A DNA stretch of 64,000 nt from Octopus sinensis. Its lineage: Eukaryota. The DNA is taken from NCBI RefSeq assembly GCF_006345805.1, contig NW_021836291.1:418654-482653 (forward strand), in the 5' to 3' direction. Below are positions 28,120 through 58,986 of this stretch, piece by piece. The notes beneath the pieces are model-generated. The model ran no database searches, was not told where the DNA came from, and saw only the letters and a program-made list of their open reading frames with translations. The translations under genes and the position numbers were made by a program. Within the stretch, counting starts at the first letter, position 1. Every line of letters begins with the position of its first letter.

Positions 28120-30330
28120 CTTTTGGCCCCGTTTCATGTCAAAACTGATCGAAAGTGAAGTTAGAGCTGCTATGAGAGTTCTGACTCCAATGGTGGCGTA
28201 CTCCCATCCGCCAAAAATGTAATTAACACTCTGAAAAGCAACACCCTTCCGCACCTGCAGACCTCAAGTCATTTCCATCCATAGAATCCGCGCCCTCTCA
28301 TTTGAAACTCACAAACGAAGCGATCTGTAGGGTTCTCAAATCTTTTTCGCCTAGTAGTAATGTAGGCATTGATGGTCTCCACCCAAGTCATTTTTACAAC
28401 CTTATTTTCACTGTGATTGGCCCAACAGGCTTGCTGCTCCTTACCAAAATCACGGAACTAGTCAATAACCTTTTGTCTTTAGATTTATCGCTTTCGCTCG
28501 TGGACTCATTTTCTCCACCCATCTGCTTATTTTTGCAAAAAGACGGCGGTGTTCGTCCAAACGCCGTCAGGAACGTTCTCCACCGCCTGGCTTCAAAGCT
28601 CTCCTGCTGGTCGGTCTCCCCGGAACTTTAAAAAACTTTTAGCCCGCTACAGCTTGGAGTCAAGATTCCCTAGCCTGTGAGGCAGCGGTGAATGCTGCCA
28701 AAATGTTTTTTTGATCGCGAGTTTACGTCTCCGAATCTTTGTCAAACTTGACATTAGAAACGCATTTAACAGTGTCCGCCGTGACTCTGTGCTGAAATCT
28801 TGCTTCCTCCATCCATTTCTTGGTTCGTGCTGCAAACCTACGGCTCTCCTTCTCTTCTTATTTTTGGCTCTTCTACCATTATTTCAACCACCGATGTACA
28901 GAGCGACCCACTCTACCTTCGTATTTTTGCTGGCCATCGATGAGGCGATTCGCATGTCCAAGTTAAAAGTCTGGTACTTCGACAACGCTTTTATTGGCGT
29001 TCTGGCAATAGTAAATGACCTGATTAAAGTTGCTCCGATTCTTGTTTTTATAGGTCTTACGATAAACCCAAAAAAATCAGTGATTTTCAACATTGGCTAC
29101 GACCATGCACTCTTTACTTCGAAAATCCGGCTCTTGTTTAACCATTATCTCCAGGGCATACGCGCCGTCTTTCCCAAAGACCTTATCCTTCTTGGCACGT
29201 CTCTTTTCTTGTTCTGAATTCGATCATTCCTCCATGCTAAACTTTGCAAAATGAAAAAATCATTCAACTTTCATAAACCCATCGACGCCTACGTGGCTTT
29301 CTTTATACTGAATTTCTTCGTTTGGACTACGCACTTCGAATTTCACCCTGCTTCCAATTCCCGAACGTAGTCGGAGAATTCGATTCGTTGCTAAAAAATA
29401 CTTTCGTTCAAATTTTAAATGTACATTTTGTGCGACATAACTGGAAACAGCCTATCCTTCATATTAGGCACGGCGGTCTCGGATTCCAGGCCCCCTCGGC
29501 AGTTTCCTTGTCATGCTTTCTATTGTCCTCTTCTCGATGGAGATCTCTCGTGATCCAGATTGTTCCTCTTCTCTCTGAATCGCACACAGAGCTTTCATAC
29601 GGGACATCTTTGTGGACAGCTAGCGGACTCAAAGACCTATGTCGAGTGCGCGAGTGGGCGGAGGTCACCAGCTCTTAGTCTTTTCGGTAGTTAGAGTCTC
29701 ACGGAAGCCAACACCAGCGCGCTTACCTGTTATCAGGAGCATCTCCACATACGTGCGCTTGGATTAACGCCTATCTTTCCCTTGCAGCTGGATCCTTCCT
29801 AGACTCCAAGTGCTTAAGAATCGGAATATCTCTTCGACTCGCCTTGGAAATTTGCAAGCCTCAGTAATGCCGCTGAGGAACTTATATAGACCGCAAAGGT
29901 TTACACCCGCTCTCTTGTCCTAAAGATACCTAGGCATGTGAAGCTTAATAGCATCGTAAAACGTCTGGTTGAGGCAACCAGCATCCTAAATCATTTGGTC
30001 TTAACAGAAAGAATGGTAAGAGGCAAGAAGGCGTCTACAAGTGTGGTAAAGCGATCGTCTCTGAAATCGCGTCTGCTATCAAAGCCGGTATAGTGGCGAC
30101 AAACGCGGAGATTCTCAAAGCAAATAGATACGTATTTCTATTGGACAGATTCGTCTTTGAACCTGTGTCAGTCAAAACTTCAGGAAAATCGACACTAGGT
30201 TTCCTCAACGAGAGAGGTCGTCACCTCGGAAGATCTAGAAACGACCCCCGCGAATTTAATCAGCTTTTTGAGCGTGTCTCAATAGCTGTCTTTAGGGGGA
30301 ACTGTTTCTCATTTTTTTTTCTGCGGCTAG
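28120..30330 (+). mobile_element. Degenerate CRE-like retrotransposon (RT + RLE)
   Basis: GIDGLHPSH, KDGGVRPNAV, QLGV, VKLDIRNAFNSVRRD, WYFDN, HGGLG, FERVSIAVFRGN. Confidence 0.85.
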
Positions 30331-32201
30331 TAGGTGATTTACTTTTGTTTCTTGTTTTGCTGATTCAAAAAAAATTTTGTAAAATTATTTAATTACTACT
30401 AATAATGAAGCAATTTATATTTATTTATATGATTATTTTTTTTACTTTCGATTTATTGACTGATTAACCAACTTCTAAATAAAAATATAAAATAATTTTT
30501 GATGATATATTCATAAATGAGGTTGTCGCTTAGCTCTCAGTGGCCGGAAGCCTACATAAAATTTGGGGGCGGGTGGCTCAAAGTCAAATACATTAAAAAA
30601 CTAATCCAGAGCGATCTGGAAAATGAACTATACGAAAGGTCAAATGCAACCTAAATTGGCAGAGTTCAGCGCATTACATACGTGAATGAAAATAGAATTC
30701 CCTGCTCTAAAAGAAAAAAGACAAACCTATACTACAGGCCTAATTTCACTCCTGAAGTTATTTGATTAATTTATTCCAAGGTCAAAATTCGAACGTCGCT
30801 GGACGATGTTTTAAATTTTCTAGAACAAAGTTACAGAGGTGCCGACTTTGAAATGGTTTTGTTCATTTCGAGGGTGAGAGTATAAATTGAATCTGAGACA
30901 ATCCAACTGCTTATCTCCCACTGCAACCACATGGGGGGGTCCAGTCAAAAAAAACTTTTCTCTGCTCTGGAATCGTTCTCTAAAAGAAGTAAGTTGAGAT
31001 TTGTAAGACGAGTAAAATATGATATTGATTAACATTGCAAATTCAATATTTCTAGTCATTGCTCTTCAAGTGAATGTCCGACTCATCCGCGACCTGCTCT
31101 CCTCCGCACAGGTCGTCCTAGACAACCACTGCGTCTGTGTTGGCTCCAAATCACTGTGGTCTCAGCATCAGAACAGCCTCAAAAGAACTGCCAGATTTAT
31201 CGAAAGGGTTTTACTTGCGCTTAACTGCAGAAAGCTGTTAAAGATTCAGAAAATGTACGTTTTTTCTCCGACTTACCGATTTACAATGTCATCGAAATAC
31301 TCAAATACGTTCAGAATCCAGAAGATCTGGACAATATTCGTAGAACATGCCGACTTTTTTATAGGTCATGACTGTTTTAATGTCAGACTATTTGCAGGGG
31401 AGGTTGTTTGGAAATATTTTTGCAGGGAATTAGATGTATCTTCAATCTGCCAAGAAGGGGGTAAAATAGATTGGCAGTTGACTTATTTTAAATCTCTCGA
31501 GTTTGTGTTTTATGATTAGCAGATGTCGGGAAGTGATATATCTGGTCTATCTGAACTACTGCTACAAATGCTCGCACGTCTTTTGGTCGGTATGCAATTA
31601 AATGGCTAAATACATAGAATGATTCGAGGTTGTGCAAGTGTAGCGAGACTCCAATATATTTAAAGAAATTGACTCCCGAGCAATTCGTCGGTATGGTTAT
31701 TGACTAAGAAGAGGTTAATTATTCATCAAAATTGATTTTATTGTTTTTGGTCAATACCACATTTACGTTATTCATTACATGTTACAGCATTAGCAAAAAA
31801 GAAATCATTAATTGTCAATTGTTCGATAATATGAAAAGAAAATTTTCGAGTAGCCAAAGTAAACAAATAACTTATCCTACTCGCGATTTCTTAAAACCAC
31901 AATGTTTATACAATTGTTTTTCTAATAAACATTTAACCAGGAATCAAAATAAATTTGTATAATTTGATCATAATGAATAATTAAAATTTTAAATCACAGA
32001 GATACAATCTCTAAATCTCACTCGATCAACTTTGAATTTAATTTGAAATTTACAAACAGAGATCACAGCCTGTTAACAAATATATGATTTATAACATTAG
32101 AAACATAAATAATAAACAAATAAAAACTATTCGCATATCAAAAATATTATCTGTACAAATAAGGAGAGCTCAGTCACTGATCTTGACACATACAACAATG
32201 A

Positions 32202-36380: not shown

Positions 36381-36614
36381 AAAATGATGATTACATATTT
36401 AGACTTCCTTATTTTTGGTTTTTCATTAAAGTAAATAATCTTTCATTGATGAAAAATTATTATAAATGCTGCCTTCGAAGCAAAGTGAGTTTGACACTCC
36501 TACTCTATGGTAAATCTTCATTGATACCAGTATTTTATTAGATTTAAAAATTTTATTAATAATATAAGGTAATTAAATATCAGTTTTAATAAATAAAATT
36601 GTGGTCACATAGTA

Positions 36615-37877
36615 ATGGTTTCTTTGTCTAAATTACTGGAATGTTTATTTCACCCACAAGATTTGTTCTACATGGCAAAATTCCGTCTTGGAGGGAGTCC
36701 CCTAACCCCTTCATTCAAGGGAAACATCAGTGGAGATCAAAAAATATGCTTTGATCTGCTAGCCAAAACAAGTCGCAGTTTTGGTGGAGTCATCCAGTCC
36801 CTAAACAAAGAGTTGAGCCTCCCCGTGGCCATATTTTATCTCGTCTTGCGTGCATTGGACACAATCGAGGACGACACGTCCATCGACCTCGAACTCAGGA
36901 AAGTCATGCTCAAGGAATTCCCAACACGATTGAGTGACCCTTCTTTTGTTTATCCACAATCCAACGGATCAGAGATTCTCCAAATGTTTCCGCATGTTAA
37001 ATTTAAAATTTCACGTGCAGATTTCACGGGAATATCTGTTACTGGATGATTCCTATCGACGAGTGATTGTCCGGGTGTGTGAGCAAATGGCGAGAGGGAT
37101 GTGTGAGTACATGGACAGAGGAGTAAATACTTTGGCGGAATGGGACGAGTATTGCTATTATGTCGCCGGGTTGGTTGGGATGGGCTTGTCTGCTCTTTTT
37201 GTGGGTGTTTCGGGGGAAGACGATCGATTGAACCAAAAACAGCTGTGGAATTCCATGGGGCTTTTCCTTCAAAAGACTAACATTATTCGTGACTATGCCG
37301 AAGACCTTTCAGAAAACAGAGCTTTTTGGCCAAAAGAAGTAATGATATATATATTTTTTAGGTTTGGTGCAAATATGTGAGCAATTTGAGTGATCTGCAG
37401 GATTCCGATGGAGTGAATGTACTGAATCAGCTAATATTGAATACTCTAGCCCACGTAGAGGATGTCCTGACTTACCTATCTCTCATTAAGGACTCCAAAA
37501 TATTCTTATTTTGTGCAATTCCTCAAGTTTTTTTTAATATATTGAGTTTAGGTGATGGCAATGGCCACTCTTGAAAGATGCTTCAATAACCCTGATGTGC
37601 TTAGACGGAATGTCAAGATACGACGAGGGGAGACTGTGGCTATCATTATGGGTGCCAGGGACTATGACAGTGCACGGGCATTGCTCTACAAATACATTCG
37701 ATCGGTGAGGTTAATGGGTGGTATTCCTAGCTTGCAAGTAAAGTGAAGAGTTACAAAGATGCTGAGTTTGTGGAGAGTGTCTGCGTAATGTGTCGACCTC
37801 CCTCCCCTTTGCACCTTCAGTGGGCTGATTTGGCCTTTGCCTTTTTATTAGCTTTTTTACTCACATTTTTGAACTAA
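36615..37877 (+). CDS. FDFT1: Squalene synthase (farnesyl-diphosphate farnesyltransferase)
   Basis: TSRSF, FYLVLRALDTIEDD, YCYYVAGLVG, SMGLFLQKTNIIRDY, FWPKE, FCAIPQVMAMATL, VKIRRG and a C-terminal TM. Introns 36996-37020, 37339-37361, 37527-37551 and 37705-37730. Confidence 0.95.
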
Positions 37878-48243: not shown

Positions 48244-49694
48244 TCAGAAATCCCTGTTGCGATACTTATTAATATCGTAGTACGCGGTAACCACAACTCG
48301 ATCCATAAACTTACGACCAGACAAATGCAATTGAGCATTCTGACAAGCAGAGATTGACCCAAACTCAACAAAAATCTTGCCGATCCCAGGGACGTCAATA
48401 TCGTTCGTCGGACGAGGTACTTGCATTGACTTGACAACTCCATATTTCGAACACTCCTGTCTTATGTCATCGACAATCTCTGAAAATGTCAATACAAACC
48501 TGACCTTCATACTCGTCGTCACATGCAATGTCCTCAATGGTAACCATATTCATTAGACACAACACTTCAGTGGGCGGACCAGCATTCATGCTATGGTTAT
48601 ATCCCGGAAGTGCTATTTGTGACTGCAGGGCCACAGTCATTTGAGGCTTTGCCGCCACGGGCGCACGTTGGACTACTAATTTCTTCTCCCCGACCGTCAT
48701 TCCGTTCAGTCCAATACAAGCCTTGTCCACAGAAGTTGGATCCATGTACTCACAAAAGGAGTAACCCTTCGATATCCCGGTAGCCAAGTCGATGATCAGA
48801 TTAAAACTTTTAATTTCCCCGAAAGAAACTAAAAGTTCTTTAACCTTCGAAATAGATTACAAATAATTACCTGATCCTCAGTCAAATATGTGGGAAGGCC
48901 TCCAATGAAGAGCTTGTTGGCTGACTCAGGAGGCGCCTCAATTCCTACCACTCAATTTCCCTACTCAACCAAGAATTCCTTCTATTTCTGGCAGTCCGGT
49001 GTTCTGTAGGTAATCTCGTGGTCGACGTAGTTTGAGACATTGGCCTCTCAAAGTGATCCCATCAAAAGCCAAAGCCGCAGTGGTCTCTTCAGCAGATCTG
49101 AACTCGAGAAAGGCATAGTTTTTCTCAATATTGACTTGTACGGCAATAATTGGATTCCCCTCAGCCTGGTTGTATCCATTGACCTTCATTTGGTAATTGA
49201 AAGTCTCCATTAGCTCATCCTCGGTGGTCTTGAAAGGGATTCCTCCGACGTATATTCGCCGGGCCTGCCGACTCATGGTAGACCCCGACTGAGTGAGTGC
49301 GGGCATCATGGACGGACACCCAGGTGCATCCATGGGGACCTGTCCAGTCTCTATCAATATTGTTTATCGTCCAATTACGCTGCATGGCCTTATATTGGGA
49401 AGGAGTGACATGTTCATATCCCGGAGGAGCCACATCCCAATATTGATAAGGTCGCCGTCGGGGAGGAAGTGGTGATAGAGGACGAGGACTCGAACGAGAA
49501 TGACGGTGAGAAGAACGTTTATGCCGATCTCTGTGATCCCGGTCACGTTCTCTGTCTCGGTCGCGATCCCTGTCTCGATCACGCCCTCTTTCTCTCCCCC
49601 GATCTTTATCCCTTTCTCTTCGAGGGCTCCGAGATCGTCTCCCTTAATAATTGTCAAGGCAATATAATGAACTAAGTTCAACTTCAGACGGCAT
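48244..49694 (-). CDS. U2AF2: U2 snRNP auxiliary factor large subunit (U2AF65)
   Basis: RS/RD domain, YWDVAPPGYEHVTPSQYKAMQ, QARRIYVG, EKNYAFLEFRS, KLFIGGLP, TGISKGYSFCEY, and UHM PTEVLCLMNMV..GKIFVEF..GRKF. Confidence 0.96.
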
Positions 49695-49877: not shown

Positions 49878-49958
49878 GCCAACATGGCCGAGTGGTTAAG
49901 GCGGTAGCTTCAGGTGCTATTACGGAAACGTGCGTGGGTTCGAATCCCACTGTTGGTA
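49878..49958 (+). tRNA. tRNA-Leu (anticodon CAG)
   Basis: Acceptor stem GCCAACA/TGTTGGT, D-arm TGGCCGAGTGGTTAAGGC, anticodon arm GTAGC-TTCAGGT-GCTAT, long variable arm, T-arm GTGGGTTCGAATCCCAC, then TTTT (Pol III terminator). Confidence 0.93.
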
Positions 49959-51679: not shown

Positions 51680-52120
51680 AATATCTGTTAATGGTCTGGG
51701 GATGTTTCTCATATAAAGGTGTGGGCAATCTCGTCATCATTAATCGAAAAATGAACGGTGCAAAATATAAACATTTTGTCAAATAATCTAAAACAATCAG
51801 GGTCGAAAATGGGGCTAAACTCTTTTATTTTTAGCAAGATAATTTCCCTTGCCATACTTCATGAGCAGTAACTGAATATACAAAAGATAGAAAATATACA
51901 ATTTATGATTGGGTCTCTCAATCACCTGACCTGAATCCAATGGAGCATGCTTGGGCGACGATGAAAAACAAATGATTGCAAAATTCACCAAAAATTTTAA
52001 AGATTTGGAAACAAAATTATTTCAAATATGGGAGGCACTACCAAAAAATACCTAGAAAATCTGGTTATGTCAATGAAAAAAGAAGTTTATGAGAGACGTG
52101 GGTGAATGTCTGTTTATTAA
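51680..52120 (+). mobile_element. Tc1-family transposase remnant
   Basis: MVWGCFSYKGVGNL, QDN.PCHTS, QSPDLNPMEHAW, with stops. Confidence 0.85.
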
Positions 52121-52264
52121 ATTTTAATTTGTTTTATTAAAATCAAAAAATTCAATTAATTATGTCCGGCAAAATTTAAATTTTGCGTAAAAATTCAATT
52201 TCAAACGGAAAAAAATAATTTTTAATATCAAACAAATAATTCGAATCTTGTCAAGAATTGTTTT

Positions 52265-53982
52265 TGTCGCGCCTATAGCTGGCGACCATGGTGACCTACA
52301 TTGTTGACAGCGTGACCTACATAGTTTGACATTCAATTAAAAACAAAAATAATTTATTATAAAAAGGGTTTAGCGTCATTTTAATTAGAAAAATGCTATC
52401 TTCCAAAAGATGTTGTATTAGTATAGTCTCAATCCTTAGGTTACGTGAAAAATGACAGTGAATACCAAAATATTGTAAATGCACAACTCCAAATACCCGT
52501 ACAAACTACATCTAAATCCGAAAAATACAAACTTATTAAAAAAGCTAATCAATTTATGATAATTGACGATCGGTATATTTGATATTCCTAATTCGTAGTC
52601 TCTATCTAAAGGACGATAATAACCAAAAACACAAATTGGTTATCTGTTTGGACAATGAAATGGAGATGAAGACACTGGCATTCGCTATTCACCAAGAATG
52701 CCACTGGGGAATGCTAAAGCTTCATAAGAAGTGCTGTAAATTTTATTTTACTGTGAAGCGCCCTATTATCGAACAAATTATAAAAGACTGCGAAATTTGT
52801 AAATTTGCTGGCCCGTTAAAAGTATTTTTGATTAAATATACTTAGGTATCCGATTCTAATTACCATGTAACGGCAAGAAGTCCAAATGAAAGATTCCAGG
52901 CGGATCTTATTGATGTTAGAAGATATAAAGATTTTAACGATGGATATAATTGGATATTAACAATTATTGACATCTACAGCAAATTCGTGGTTTGCAAATC
53001 CTTAAAAAATAAATCTGCTTTTGGTAAAACTTAACATTTACTTTTAGAAGTTGGAAATAAATTAAAAAAAATTTTTGTCAAATTGGATATTGTCAAGTTT
53101 TGCAAACGGACAACGGATTGGAATTCAAAAATCAACTGATGGATCAACTATGCGGAGAAAATAAAATCAAACATATTTATGGAAGACCAAACCATCCCCA
53201 GTCACAAGTTTATAAATTTGAAATAAATTAGGGTGTAATTGAGCGCTTTAACCAAACATTGACACGGAGTATGGCTAAACTGATGGATAAAGAAGGAACT
53301 AAAAATTGGAAACAATTTTTAGACAGAGTAACTTTTTCTTATAATACGACACACCACTCGGCGATCAATGAGACCCCCTTCAAAAAGTTTAGGGGTATTT
53401 CTGGAATTAACACTGTGATTCATGAAATACCAGGTTATAATCTTATTTATAATTTAGATGAAAATAATGAGGCATTGTTTGTCAAAGATAAACTTAGTGG
53501 TAAATTTACGATGTATTTATTTTAGAAACGAATAACAAAATTTTTAATTTTACTCCTCCAGACATGAATTCATCTTATTTTAAATGAATGAATAAAAAGA
53601 TGAGAGTACACAGGTCAAAATATGATTTTGAAATAGGGAATGAGGTATAATTAAATAATAACAGTTTAGGTTCGAATCTTAAAAGATTGTGAGACGAATC
53701 CGTCATTGAAGCTACACAGATTTGAATCCCCATATGAAGAAAAGGGAAAAGTAAAAAATATAATGTATAATAACAGATTAATGGTTAGTTGTTTTTCCTA
53801 ACATTTAGATCGAATTAGGAAATGAAACCAAGATAGTTACTATGAATAGAGTTAAAAAATGTTAAGGTTTTTGAATATTTAGCATTTATCTTGAGTCAGT
53901 AATTAGTGTCAAACTATGTAGGTCACCCTGTCAACCATGTCAACTATGTAGGTCACCATGGTCGCCAGCGTAGTTCGCGACA
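52265..53982 (+). mobile_element. Full-length Ginger-type (gypsy-integrase-like) DNA transposon
   Basis: TGT...ACA termini; imperfect TIRs at 52265-52331 and 53907-53982 (GCTGGCGACCATGGTGACCTACA / TGTAGGTCACCATGGTCGCCAGC); 5-bp TSD GTTTT at 52260-52264 and 53983-53987; integrase gene inside. Confidence 0.9.
52393..53865 (+). pseudogene. Integrase-like transposase with 10 exons; one frameshift and one in-frame TGA
   Basis: HHCC (IHQECH..CEIC); DDE (FQADLID, QTDNG, VIERFN); GRPNHPQSQG; YNTTHHSAINETPF. Nine 24-26-nt GT-AG introns; 1-nt loss in the A8T5 run (~53064-53076); TGA at 53585. Confidence 0.85.
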
Positions 53983-53996
53983 GTTTTAAAATATTA

Positions 53997-54790
53997 TGTC
54001 ACGGGTTGGATAATACCCCCTTAAAAATTTTATCAAAATCATACGAAAATAACCTGATAATTAATTAAAAATAACTTGATAATGGAATTAAGTCAATTTA
54101 TTCAATTTTTTGATTGAATGAATTTTACCAAGAGTCGGCAAAACCCATTTGAACGAATCGTCATTCATATCTTTAAGTGCGCACCTATCTTTATCAACTT
54201 TGGATATTTGGTATATAGTTAAATCAATCTGGTCATACAAGGGGTATTTTCGATTATTCGGATGTGCATCAATATCGTGTCTGAGTAGGACATTATTTCC
54301 TACGGCTAAATCTTCATCAAATTTCCATTCCCACCTCTTTTTCATATTTTCTCCGGCGAAAACATGGCTTTCAAATAATTCAATTCATATTCTCCTGACA
54401 GTGAACGCATTTTGAGATCACAGCAGTAATTTCGACTCAGGTTACTGCATAAACTTTCTTTCTCAGTATCGAAAGCAACTTTTCTCTTCCAAAATGTGTC
54501 CCCCTTGATAGTTTTTATTTTAAGTTCCTTTTCTTCTTGGGGGAAAAGCGTAACCTCTGGTTTTTGTATTTTATGTATACTATCCCTTCGTCTTCAAAAA
54601 TTAACTGTTCTGCTAATTTTCTGTATCTTTTTTTTAGATTTCTGAAATCGGTCCATAAAAATACATCTAATTGAATATTTTTAATTACTTCAAGTTCATG
54701 TTTAGTAAGTTTGAGTAAAACCATTTCTGAAAAATATATTTGATCAATTATACTTATTATTTTTTCAAATTGGAAAACTAGCTCTAGTTA
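53997..54790 (-). mobile_element. Internally deleted relative of the Ginger-like element
   Basis: TGTCACGGG terminus at 53997; C-terminal DLAVGNNVLLRHDIDAHPNNRKYPL parallels DFEIGNEVRILKDCETNPSLK; the N-terminal ORF 54515-54724 is present but the DDE core is absent. Confidence 0.55.
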
Positions 54791-54799
54791 TTGAGGGGG

Positions 54800-56477
54800 C
54801 TCTGGCCTCGAATTCTTGGTGCGATTGGTGCAAGTTTCTTTCATTTGTCCCTGTCTGTCTGGGCAGCCCTTTAAACGGCCCTCTTCGTGGTGACCGTTTG
54901 TCCGTCTCGCAGCAAATTAAAACAAACTGCGAGTTTTTCAACAATTCAGAATTTGATATCAGCTATTTTTCCCTTCATGCTGCTGAAAGGCTCCTTCGTC
55001 CAATTCAGAGCACTCAGGACATTACTCGAATGGTTCGCAGCAAGCTTATGCAAGGCGACGTTCGGAGTGCAGTACGTGCCATTTCCCCGAACACTACAAT
55101 TGCCCCTCCCCTTCTGATAAAGTCCTCGACCAATTGCCCTCTAAACACCCCGGTGCATCTGAAATCCCAGATCTGATTACTGATTCCCATTCTGTATATC
55201 CCGTCTCTTCAACAGAAGTAACTGCCACCCTCAGTTCTTTTCCATTCAGTAGCAATGAGGGTATCGATGGCAGCTGACTTCTGCAAAATGTAATGAAATC
55301 CCATTTCTCCTTAAAATTGATGTCAAAAACGCGTTCAACTCGATTCGGCGCGATCATATCCTTGAAACTGTCCGAAGTCGTTTCCCTGCCTTATATTTGA
55401 TCGTCCATCTGGCTTACGCCTCCCTCAGCTGTCTCTTGTTTGCCGACAATGTTATTATGTCCGAAACTGGTATTCAACAAAGCGACCCTCTTGGGCCTCT
55501 TTTATTCTCACTCGGTGTTGATCACATTGCCCGCCAATTGTCCTCTGAGGTCAACATTTGGTACCTCGATGATGTTACTCTTGGTGGGGCTTTGGAGATC
55601 GTCAAGAATGATGTAGAAAAAAATTATTTCTGGTTTTGCTTCCATTGGACTCGCTTTGAATGGATCCAAATCCGAGCTGATATGTTTGTCTGCGAGCCAT
55701 TCAGAATTCAAACTTATTTTTTCCACCTTATCTCACCATATTGAAGACCTGTCAATCACCCAGCTTGATGACCTTATCATTCTGGGTTCCCCAATCAATA
55801 GCAAGGCTACTAGGAAGGCTTTATGTAACAGGCTCGAAGAATTGGAAACTCTAATCTCCCGCATTTCCAAACTTGAATCCCATTTAGGCCTTTTCTTGCT
55901 CAAGAACTATCTCTTTATACCAAAGCTAACTTATCTCATGCGCTCATCGCCCTGCTTTCTCGAACAAAATCACTTATCTCGTCTCGACAACATGGTCTCC
56001 AAAACTCTTGAGCTACTCGTAAATATCAAATTCAAACCTTCAGACATACGACGGGTTAATTTACCTATTCGTTACAGGGCATCGGCATTCGTTCTTGTGA
56101 AGATTTATCCCTCCCATGTTATCTTTCCTCGTTGTCTGCTTCCGCTAGTTTCGTCAACTCTGTTCTCTTCCCCTTCTCTGAACAGCCCGAGTTGTTGGAA
56201 TATGCGGCAGGTGTCAACATGTGGATTAATTGTGGGCTTAAAACCCCGGACGTCCCCTCAGTTCAAAAGAACTGGGATGATATACATTGTTCCCATGTAC
56301 TCGAAGATATCCGACTACGTGCTGACCAATTTCAGTTAGCAGGCATTAATTGTGCCTGTCAACCCCACTCGGCCGATTTGCTTGACGCATTGCCGGTTTC
56401 CTCTGCTGGAATGTTCCTGGATAACGAATTCGGCCGCACTGGTTTGTGTCTACGCTTTGGGATCGAGATTTGCCAGC
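54800..56477 (+). mobile_element. CRE-like retrotransposon, internally deleted and cut off at the rDNA array edge
   Basis: KLMQGDVRSAVR, DVKNAFNSIRRD, GIQQSDPLGPLLF, WYLDDVTLGG, LLKNYLFIPKLTYLMRSSPC, LDALP..LDN; ends abruptly at CLRFGIEICQL. Confidence 0.88.
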
Positions 56478-58986
56478 TACGTCAACAAAATTTACCTTAG
56501 TGGCAAGAAACATAATAAATCACTTCTAAAATAATAGCGTTCTTATTTAAATCTAAAAATGCGTTTTTATTTTCACCAAAAATAAACGCGAGATCTCCAC
56601 TTGTGTGCAACCAATCGACCTGATTTTTTCAGGACAACTGCCTCCCTTGATGGTCTACTATATTAACTTGTTCAACCTCCTCTAAACCTTTTTACTATCT
56701 CAAACTAAGGAATCATGTACAATGTAACTTAAGATGTCAGACTTACAATGTAAATAAGAAAATAAATAAATTAATAAATTAAAAATATTGTTATATATCA
56801 ATTTTGATGTTTTATGAACGTTTTTGCATGCAAAACTGGAGTCAGACGTTCCTAGACCTTAGTTTCTTTATAGGCTACTACAATGTATGCTAATGGCCTA
56901 TCTATAAGGGCCCTTCTACAAGAGGCCTGGAAATATGCTGTTTATTGATAAAATCTCTAGAATACATTAACAAATTCCCTAAAATTATAAATTAGTTGAT
57001 TAACAAATTTGAAAAACTGAACTGTCTGAACTTTACATATGTCTAACTAAAAATGAGTCTTTATTTCCCGACAAAACACCCCCCGAGATCTCCACTTGTG
57101 TGCAACCAATCGACCTGATTTTTTCAGGACAACTGCCTCCCTTGATGGTCTACTATATTCTCTTGTTCAACCTCCTCTAAACCTTTTTACTATCTCAAAC
57201 TAAGGAACCATGTACGATGTAACTCAAGATGTCAGACTTACAATGTAAATAAGAAAATAAATAAATTAATAAATTAAAAATATTGTTATATATCAATTTT
57301 GATGTTTTATGGACGTTTTTGCATGCAAAACTGGAGTCAGACGTTCCTAGACCTTAGTTTCTTTATAGGCTACTACAATGTATGCTAATGGCCTATCTAT
57401 AAGGGCCCTTCTACAAGAGGCCTGGAAATATGCTGTTTATTGATAAAATCTCTAGAATACATTAACAAATTCCCTAAAATTATAAATTAGTTGATTAACA
57501 AATTTGAAAAGCTGAACTGTCTGAACTTTACATATTTCTAACTAAAAATGAGTCTTTATTTCCCGACAAAACACCCCCCGAGATCTCCACTTGTGTGCAA
57601 CCAATCGACCTGATTTTTTCAGGACAACTGCCTCCCTTGATGGTCTACTATATTCACTTGTTCAACCTCCTCTAAACCTTTTTACTATCTCAAACTAAGG
57701 AACCATGTACGATGTAACTTAAGATGTCAGACTTACAATGTAAATAAGAAAATAAATAAATTAATAAATTAAAAATATTGTTATATATCAATTTTGATGT
57801 TTTATGAACGTTTTTGCATGCAAAACTGGAGTCAGACGTTCCTAGACCTTAGTTTCTTTATAGGCTACTACAATGTATGCTAATGGACTATCCATAAGAA
57901 CCCTTCTAGAAGAGGCCTGGAATTATGCAGTTTATTGATAAAATCTTTAGAATACATTAAAAAATTCACTAAACATATTATAAATTAGTTGATTAACAAA
58001 TTTGAAAAGCTGAACATAATTCTAACTAAATAAGTCTTTATTTCCCGACAAAACACCCCCCGAGATCCCCACGTGTGTACATGCAATCGACTCGATTTTT
58101 TCAGACATAAGTGTGTAAATATGATAGTAAATTGTATTAGCCTGTTCAACCTTTTTTAGGACCTTCATCCATGTCAAATCAAAGCCTTTTTGATAAACAC
58201 GTGTCTCAATAAAGGAAATTTGCTCGAATATGTATTTAAAATTGACTATTTAAGTTAAAAATATATTTAATGGTCCTTGAACAATTAGTATATTGACATT
58301 TTTATGTGCCTCCGATATGCGAGATCTCTCCAGCGGCCTAATTGTTCTTAAACTTTACAAACTAACTAGAAGCCCGTTAACATAATTTTTCAAAAATCAA
58401 ATTTAAATTCTATATAAAAGTGATCCGAGCGAGTTAGGATCATAATAACACTAAATTCAATTTGCTCCGCCAGAACGTGTCCCAAGCAATAGTGAGGGGA
58501 AACAGGATCGCCATCAGTTCTTCTTTACATGTAAAATTTTAACAAATAAAAAAATTAAAGATTTATTTAAAAAAGGAATAACAAAATTAAAAAACAGTAA
58601 AAGATTGCTTTTTTGACCCTCGGTGGAAGTTGGAGATGAATCTGTGCAAATTCGACTCCAAGATCCGACCCCCCAATAACGAATGTTTTTTTCTGCCTCT
58701 CTATGAAAAGATCGTCGTTATCCTGGCGAAGAGATTTGCGATCTGTCAGGCAGCTGGCCCTCCCTTTGATAATTCACTTTTGCTTGAACTAAAAAAAAAG
58801 TCAACTTACTATCTACGCTTCTCAGAAATTTATTATCCGGAAAACAGCCCGCTTTTTCTAGTACATATATCTTTAACCATCGCAGTAAATGTTATACGAT
58901 CTAAAAGTAGCCCGTCTTAACTGGTCGCATCAATATTTTTCTATACTACTATCCAGAGATTTTTTTCAAATTTGGACTTTGCTATA
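56478..58986. repeat. rDNA intergenic spacer / 3' flank, near-identical to 62476-64000
   Basis: Both copies start TACGTCAACAAAATTTACC; in the unique part the offset is 5014 bp (58630 vs 63644). Confidence 0.93.
56590..58090. repeat. Tandem ~495-bp spacer subrepeats (3 units)
   Basis: GAGATCTCCACTTGTGTGCAACC at 56590, 57085 and 57580, with a variant at 58062 (periods 495, 495, 482). Confidence 0.95.

Follow-up and report, generated by a model that had tools for sequence, protein, structure and literature searches.

Introduction

The closest known system to the transposon analyzed here is the Ginger2/Tdd group, above all TDD-4 and TDD-5 (Bao, Kapitonov and Jurka, 2010, PMC2836005, in its available part). 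KRBA2 represents GINGER2, and its integrase domain lies in one exon, as stated in the available part of PMC3575427. DNA transposons with introns are already known, and so are micro-introns in dicyemids. TDD-4 presumably contains introns as well. We found no report of micro-intron-rich transposons in dicyemids in the open-licence literature. The origin of spliceosomal introns is a long-standing question, for which clean cases need genes whose ancestral state is intron-free.

Here we analyze a window of 64,000 nucleotides (the whole stretch of DNA under study, to which all coordinates refer unless a copy or contig is named), where a preliminary description had placed a Ginger-type DNA transposon with nine introns in its integrase gene. 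According to our main reading, to which we assign a probability of about 0.62, this is a decayed copy of a Ginger2/Tdd-type cut-and-paste transposon, likely of a dicyemid, and its nine introns of 24-28 nt were likely gained after an intron-free ancestor had entered.

Structure of the element and its copies

The repeat comparison bore out the terminal inverted repeats (TIRs), the TGT/ACA ends and the 5-bp GTTTT target-site duplication (TSD) reported earlier. The span given for the transposon, 52260..53987, does contain it and also takes in the TSDs, while the element proper occupies 52265-53982 (1718 bp), with TGT at 52265 and ACA at 53982, between the left (52260..52264) and right (53983..53987) duplications, to which no strand is assigned. 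The left TIR (52265..52331, plus strand) starts with TGTCG and holds two internal GTGACCTACAT repeats, and the right one (53907..53982, minus strand) ends with ACA. The TIRs are imperfect and about 70 bp long (about 67-76 bp), their arms matching in two blocks, 52265-52309 with 53938-53982 at 84% and 52298-52331 with 53907-53940 at 94%.

The DNA search for further copies in the assembly G000 (2.7 Gb, cephalopod-like), in which 40 of 442 candidates were scored, gave at least 115 matching pieces, every one on high-numbered or small contigs. Perfect 5-bp TSDs flank nine of the 11 elements that retain both ends (one more has a single mismatch and one fails), and the target in these elements is mostly TA(A/T)TA, so that the GTTTT of the window copy is an atypical target for the family. 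An unbroken reading frame belongs to L002 (G000:C12469, about 171,000-172,800), which has both TIRs, the TSD TAGTA, nine introns and neither stop nor frameshift; L005 carries one stop, and L006 one stop and one frameshift. L002 is closer to one subfamily in its 5' part and to the other in its 3' part, which suggests a mosaic that arose by recombination. The intron stretches are kept in all copies covering a site, barring deletions that also take exon sequence, and no clean presence/absence of an intron was seen among the copies compared within the family. Dispersed copies with different TSDs, together with internally deleted derivatives, point to cut-and-paste mobility.

Several other repeats surround the element. 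A second, internally deleted Ginger-like element (53998-54780, minus strand) begins 10 nt past the right TSD; its family, with the fuller copies L036 and L203, is about 31% identical to the element protein and has four micro-introns at other sites, and with these introns it was ruled out as an intron-free control. It is abutted by a decayed non-LTR-type reverse transcriptase (54790-56500; Pfam RVT_1 at 55259-55741), to which pieces at 28227-30392 are similar, and a unit of about 495 nt with at least three repeats, recognizable by recurring ORFs, lies at 56500-58200. Just left of the element lies a truncated Tc1 transposase (51687-52140), a full copy of which (L207, 920-1945) has a continuous intron-free frame of 341 aa. 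On another contig piece (L034, 637-1290) we noted part of a Merlin/IS1595-type transposase (Pfam DDE_Tnp_IS1595); its frame is open once two GT-AG introns of 26 nt, near 787-812 and 1008-1033, are taken out. Micro-introns are not universal among the transposons of the organism, since the Merlin-like piece has two and the Tc1 family none.

Transposase gene and its lesions

The transposase gene (52393..53865, plus strand) comprises 10 exons and encodes 416 aa by the splice sites of the preliminary description. After intron removal a single frame leads from the ATG at 52393 to the TAA at 53863-53865, broken only near 53078 and at 53585; the longest exon has about 74 codons. With the frame chained by the intron phases, the motifs of the HHCC-DDE integrase claimed for this locus could be placed: the zinc finger H83-H87/C116-C119 and the catalytic triad D146-D207-E243, that is, DD35E with a spacing of 35. 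The Pfam models Integrase_H2C2 and rve match single exons with scores below the gathering cut-offs. A simple motif search found neither YPYY nor GPY/F in the spliced protein, and OTU and Ulp1 domains are absent from the element. Compared with outside proteins of 390-441 aa, the spliced protein shows 34-39% identity from end to end, the C-terminal region included. Exon 6 as the only query gave no match in a homologue search.

Both lesions noted earlier are present, the frameshift lying near 53078 (within 53072..53079, plus strand) and not near 53072 itself. At this site 15 of 20 other copies are one base longer, three are not, and two are otherwise broken; the premature TGA (53585..53587, plus strand) is a sense codon in all 18 other copies that cover it. 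Considering that the stop is absent from the other copies and that the frameshift is largely private, the window copy is probably dead. Along the spliced frame, 84 of 415 third codon positions and 62 of 832 first and second ones distinguish the window copy from the diverged copy L005 (Fisher p 1.7e-10), a bias that supports the predicted introns. Exons 2-6 show it clearly; it is missing from exons 1, 7 and 8, which are either tiny or nearly the same in both copies. Judged by the substitution pattern, the predicted spliced frame is shown to have been under purifying selection.

Predicted introns

All nine stretches named in the preliminary description run from GT to AG, are 24-26 nt long, contain 12-32% GC and have phases that chain the frame; GT..AG pairs with this spacing of 24-26 nt number 16 over the 1473 nt of the gene. 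The window DNA was aligned in spliced mode to 12 outside homologues, one by one and without use of the intron positions proposed before. Five introns, all on the plus strand like the remaining four, were recovered exactly with every homologue: intron 2 (52573..52598, phase 2, 26 nt), intron 3 (52822..52845, phase 0, 24 nt), intron 4 (53024..53047, phase 1, 24 nt), intron 5 (53208..53231, phase 0, 24 nt) and intron 8 (53645..53669, phase 0, 25 nt), introns 3, 4 and 5 each containing an in-frame stop. Intron 7 (53500..53525, phase 1, 26 nt) was found with 11 of 12 homologues, six times exactly and five times with the donor 3 nt upstream (53497), and most copies have GT only at 53500. For intron 9 (53784..53808, phase 0, 25 nt) four of the 12 alignments were exact and four more used a nearby pair. 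Intron 1 (phase 1) was recovered with none of the 12 and is required to reach the upstream ATG. Its donor had been placed at 52415, which also keeps the frame; 52412 is the likelier position, since it is the only GT that L002, L005 and L006 have here and it matches the donor of L083; the intron is then 28 nt long (52412..52439).

Intron 6 (53434..53457, phase 1, 24 nt) is in frame and stop-free, and had been proposed from its pattern only. Two of the 12 homologues support it. L082 and L083 have an intron at the same site and phase, and L077, L078 and L091 have introns of 25-26 nt within three codons of it, so that we consider it very probably a true intron, albeit the least certain of the nine. 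Introns 1 and 6 rest on L083, a family 60% identical to the element, with an intron-like stretch at both sites. Related families share most of the other sites, too: that of intron 2 occurs in L078 and L091, that of intron 3 in L083, L078, L091 and L197, that of intron 4 otherwise in L083 only, that of intron 5 in L083 and L066, and that of intron 9 in L083, L078 and L066, while intron 8 is common to all three subgroups of the element's lineage.

Conservation of the GT/AG boundaries across copies, the lack of which had been named earlier as part of a refutation, was observed: relative to L005, the intron interiors of the window copy show 30 differences in 184 positions and the splice dinucleotides two in 36, both at the misplaced donor of intron 1. 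Families 45-60% identical carry GT-AG stretches of 22-30 nt at matching codons and in the same phase, although the interiors are unrelated (54 such introns were listed). Taken together, these comparisons support the nine stretches as introns, as far as splicing can be predicted from sequence.

The organism behind the window

The window is gene-dense. Four introns of about 25-28 nt interrupt its U2AF65 gene (48244-49643, minus strand), whose identity to the 120 listed homologues is 50-69%; those among these matches that carry a name come from molluscs, flatworms and other spiralians. A second U2AF65 on G000 contig C7, at about 77.39 Mb, has introns of hundreds of bases, and its best match is a cephalopod protein (39 of 39 residues agree with Argonauta in one exon). 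Since these two genes are so different, one with micro-introns and the other cephalopod-like with long introns, the window contig is, on this gene comparison, assigned to a second, micro-intron animal within a cephalopod-like assembly, a circumstance missed by the preliminary description. Many small contigs of G000 probably come from the same animal.

Among animals, introns shorter than 30 nt are reported only for myxobolids and dicyemids in the available part of PMC13644364, and dicyemids are parasites of cephalopods (PMC2222250, available part); the second animal is therefore likely a dicyemid, a judgment from intron length and the cephalopod host. The median dicyemid intron is given as 27 nt in the available part of PMC6543705. 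Two further features of the window were noted in passing: a squalene/phytoene synthase-like gene with one apparent micro-intron (36597-37380; Pfam SQS_PSY), a find in a reduced parasite genome, and, by eye, a tRNA-like sequence upstream of U2AF65 (49884-49956).

The claim that the element is at least as intron-dense as the neighbouring host genes holds: a lower-bound parse gave 6.4 introns per kb for the element vs 2.8 for the neighbours (30 in 10.75 kb; range 0-5.1), the latter figure being biased low by the choice of nine gene stretches around long ORFs. The rate of one intron per about 125 coding nt needs correction, as nine introns in 1250 coding nt make one per about 139, and 125 is the mean exon. 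For Dicyema japonicum, means of 6.2 introns and 1155 coding nt (PMC6736024, available part) correspond to 5.4 introns per kb vs 7.2 for the full intron count of the element.

Ginger-like lineages in the same organism

Protein searches of G000 (150 of 1176 and 97 of 1359 candidates scored) revealed many further Ginger-like families on the same contigs, several of them with TGT ends and 5-bp TSDs. They form five or six lineages with 0, 1, 2, 4 or up to nine introns. In profile coordinates (column.phase), the lineage of the element has sites 48.2, 122.0, 147.2, 167.2, 181.1, 235.0, 284.1, 359.0 and 397.0 in subgroup-specific mixes; L181/L200 have 47.1 and 137.2, L185/L202 have 289.2, and L036/L203 have 76.0, 116.0, 158.0 and 239.2. 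No introns were found in L089 (columns 35-293), and no confident intron in L183/L184/L189; calls at 125.2 in L189/L190 coincide with a frameshift and were discarded. With the poorly aligned columns 300-330 left out of the cross-family counts, no intron site is common to two lineages, except in L092, a mosaic of two families (158.0 and 235.0). Some sites of different lineages are 4-18 nt apart, and an ancestor with all 16 sites would have had exons of 4, 14, 16 and 18 nt. One two-intron family (L181, L182, L188 and L193) has TGCCTAAAGTG as its best-matching ends, with CGCG (4 bp) as the flank within a longer palindrome, a departure from the TGT/5-bp pattern.

The final tree comprised 53 proteins (18 rows from G000, three metagenome loci and 32 of at least 120 listed outside proteins); L092 and L093 were in the first tree and were dropped from this one. 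KRBA2-like insect proteins, which match the element at E about 1e-35, served as outgroup in a tree built without named Ginger2, TDD, Gypsy or Polinton rows. Five or six label changes are required to explain the 18 rows from G000, and no tree among 200 bootstrap replicates has a branch that separates them from all others. The nine-family clade of the element has support 96/89; P0125 and P0131, a protein of Dictyocoela muelleri, attach to it at 100/97. A single clade of the 14 intron-bearing rows, a group named after the tree had been seen, was rejected (p-AU 7.5e-12). Intron-free relatives, several of them microsporidian, sit between the G000 lineages, and the nearest named outside relatives among the matches listed are microsporidian ORFs.

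None of the 30 metagenome relatives examined (80 fetched) has an intron at the 13 tested sites. Intron calls made in the metagenome sequences lay mostly in variable regions, were often of 3n length and never fell at a tested site, and were discarded as false calls for protein insertions. This intron-free outside sample is biased, since gene callers and the pattern search favour unbroken ORFs, and spliced RNA may be the source of some contigs. Microsporidian genomes as a whole are poor in introns. The KRBA2-like copies L176/L177 on cephalopod contigs have no short intron in the core, the search having covered short introns only.

The distribution of sites also requires losses, as L083 is without 48.2 and L078 without 235.0; the L084 group is without 48.2, 122.0, 235.0 and 397.0, though grouped, weakly (91/77), with carriers of these sites. 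The L183/L184/L189 lineage, despite having no confident intron, branches as deeply within G000 as the intron-rich one does, which rules out intron number as a simple clock of residence.

Origin of the introns

Considering lineage-private sites, the spacing of some of them by 4-18 nt and the intron-free relatives that separate the lineages in the tree, we find it likelier that introns were gained repeatedly, and in part lost again, than that older introns shrank. In the proposed course of events, intron-free Ginger-like transposons would have entered the organism five or six times from a source pool otherwise seen in microsporidia and unnamed samples, and some lineages would then have acquired micro-introns at their own sites, stepwise and with occasional loss. 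Judging by the chemistry of retroviral-type integrases, the transposase would bind the TIR repeats, cut at the terminal CA and insert with a 5-bp stagger into TA(A/T)TA sites; the host U2 spliceosome would remove the nine introns as it would the 25-28-nt introns of the adjoining U2AF65. Gains would be cheap for a spliceosome accepting almost any AT-rich GT...AG of about 25 nt, so that the introns are most likely near-neutral gains and not regulatory ones, retained since splicing is required. Independent gain in each lineage seems highly probable on the site comparison; that the introns arose as micro-introns inside this organism is somewhat favoured by the same data. The sites are common to families 45-60% identical, and the gains are thus old. 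Gain is better supported than shrinkage, as the preliminary description had surmised for an element recording active intron gain, while the word "active" goes beyond these data. Its view of an element fully adapted to the micro-intron spliceosome is overstated, given the intron-free Ginger-like lineages and the intron-free Tc1 family in the same organism. As to the source of the introns, tandem duplication left no signal (5' 175 vs 164.8 ± 10.1, p 0.16; 3' 155 vs 158.5 ± 10.5, p 0.65), and a test for introners, which would leave near-copies of one mobile sequence as introns at different sites, revealed no shared interior by eye in the 54 listed introns, which are old and very short.

The most substantial competing explanation is that the introns come from earlier hosts with ordinary introns, or from Ginger ancestors that already had them, and were shortened to about 25 nt only in this organism. 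Host genes do behave in this manner, as the intron near residue 122 of the window U2AF65 coincides with an exon border in the C7 copy, and dicyemid introns are described as shortened (PMC6543705, available part); Ginger1 genes have one to four introns at conserved sites (PMC2836005, available part), loss prevails in CACTA transposases (PMC4158355, available part), and the outgroup sample leans towards intron-free genes. Nevertheless, no site is common to the four intron-bearing lineages, and the close spacing of sites excludes a single intron-rich common ancestor. A transposon arriving from a long-intron host would, moreover, need its long introns to be spliced by a micro-intron spliceosome, and the KRBA2-like copies from the cephalopod contigs yielded no short intron in the core in a search limited to short introns, so we regard shrinkage as unlikely. 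The stretches might also be taken for insertions acquired during the decay of a dead element, or for errors of the assembly, a notion that draws on the two true lesions of the window copy and on the many broken copies. It is already largely refuted and in our estimation has hardly any probability left, for families 45-60% identical repeat the GT-AG ends, the length of 22-30 nt and the phase at matching codons although their interiors are unrelated, and L002 is open from end to end only after splicing.

Splicing-based control of transposase is known from the P element, and the introns may likewise have been kept as regulators, nine imperfect or cell-type-specific splicing steps throttling transposase output. 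The density, about twice that of neighbouring genes, the splice sites kept across diverged families and the fact that retention of any intron but number 6 would break the protein are in line with such a role. However, splice sites would be conserved just as well by the mere need to produce the protein, stops in 3n introns show no significant enrichment (17 of 21 vs 14.8 expected from shuffles), no alternative frame or repressor isoform was seen, and Ginger-like and Tc1 families without introns survive in the same organism. Control of transposition by splicing, suggested in the preliminary description, found no evidence in our data, and we consider it improbable.

The favoured reading, gain after entry, may be extended. 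A dicyemid would have been invaded repeatedly by intron-free Ginger-like transposons, probably horizontally from a pool shared with microsporidia, and up to nine introns of 22-30 nt, denser than in host genes, would have been gained inside it, producing the series from 0 to 9. We hold this extension tentatively, at slightly less than even odds. If it is true, the introns would tie the elements to the micro-intron spliceosome and block further host jumps. Related lineages within one organism, with 0, 1, 2, 4 or up to nine private micro-introns and many copies, would offer a natural test of intron gain, in which rate, site preference and source of the gains are measurable. The data further suggest that ORF-based annotation overlooks transposases in micro-intron animals and that this assembly contains a largely undescribed micro-intron animal genome.

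Comparison with known systems

Polinton/Maverick elements are 15-25 kb long and carry genes for DNA polymerase B, capsid proteins and an ATPase. Their integrases have a related fold, and a Preplasmiviricota cluster scored 0.95 in a feature search of the relative L089; the viral-contig relatives are, however, only 22-41% identical in the best segment (best E 2e-36), and the element, with 1718 bp and one gene, is no Polinton/Maverick. Neither is it a Gypsy LTR retrotransposon, since its terminal repeats are inverted, not direct, and enclose an integrase only; the nearby reverse transcriptase at 55259 lies outside it. The nearest named relatives among the matches listed, integrase-only microsporidian ORFs labelled 'Gag-Pol/Pro-Pol polyprotein', are of similar length. 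One of them, Nosema granulosis P0124, is 37% identical to the element protein over 388 residues and apparently intron-free (424 aa on a 1466-nt contig), in contrast to the nine introns of the element. CACTA transposases likewise vary between families in the number and sites of introns; they have 1-6 exons, mostly through loss from a four-exon ancestor (PMC4158355, available part), whereas the Ginger-like genes studied here have 1-10 exons with lineage-private micro-introns, which argues for gain.

With Ginger1 the element shares an integrase-type transposase, TGT ends and GT-AG introns, and it is without the YPYY and GPY/F motifs, the OTU and Ulp1 domains and the 4-bp CCGG/CCGT TSD of that group; its introns are more than twice the maximum listed for Ginger1 and sit in a shorter gene (PMC2836005, available part). 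The classification as a Ginger-type DNA transposon thus stands as to the integrase-type cut-and-paste structure and is refined: by the structural criteria of the same source, the element would be Ginger2/Tdd-like, not Ginger1. At 1.7 kb it is shorter than the listed autonomous Ginger2/Tdd families (2.7-6.7 kb), its target is TA(A/T)TA instead of RTATAY, and it has nine micro-introns, a number for which the available part of PMC2836005 gives no Ginger2 counterpart. In common with Ginger2/Tdd it has TGTNR...YNACA ends, a TIR within the range of 50-180 bp, an AT-rich target, and an H2C2 finger with a DDE core and neither YPYY nor GPY/F, and its 5-bp TSD, different from the 4-bp TSD of the animal Ginger2 members, is that of TDD-4 and TDD-5 (PMC2836005, available part).
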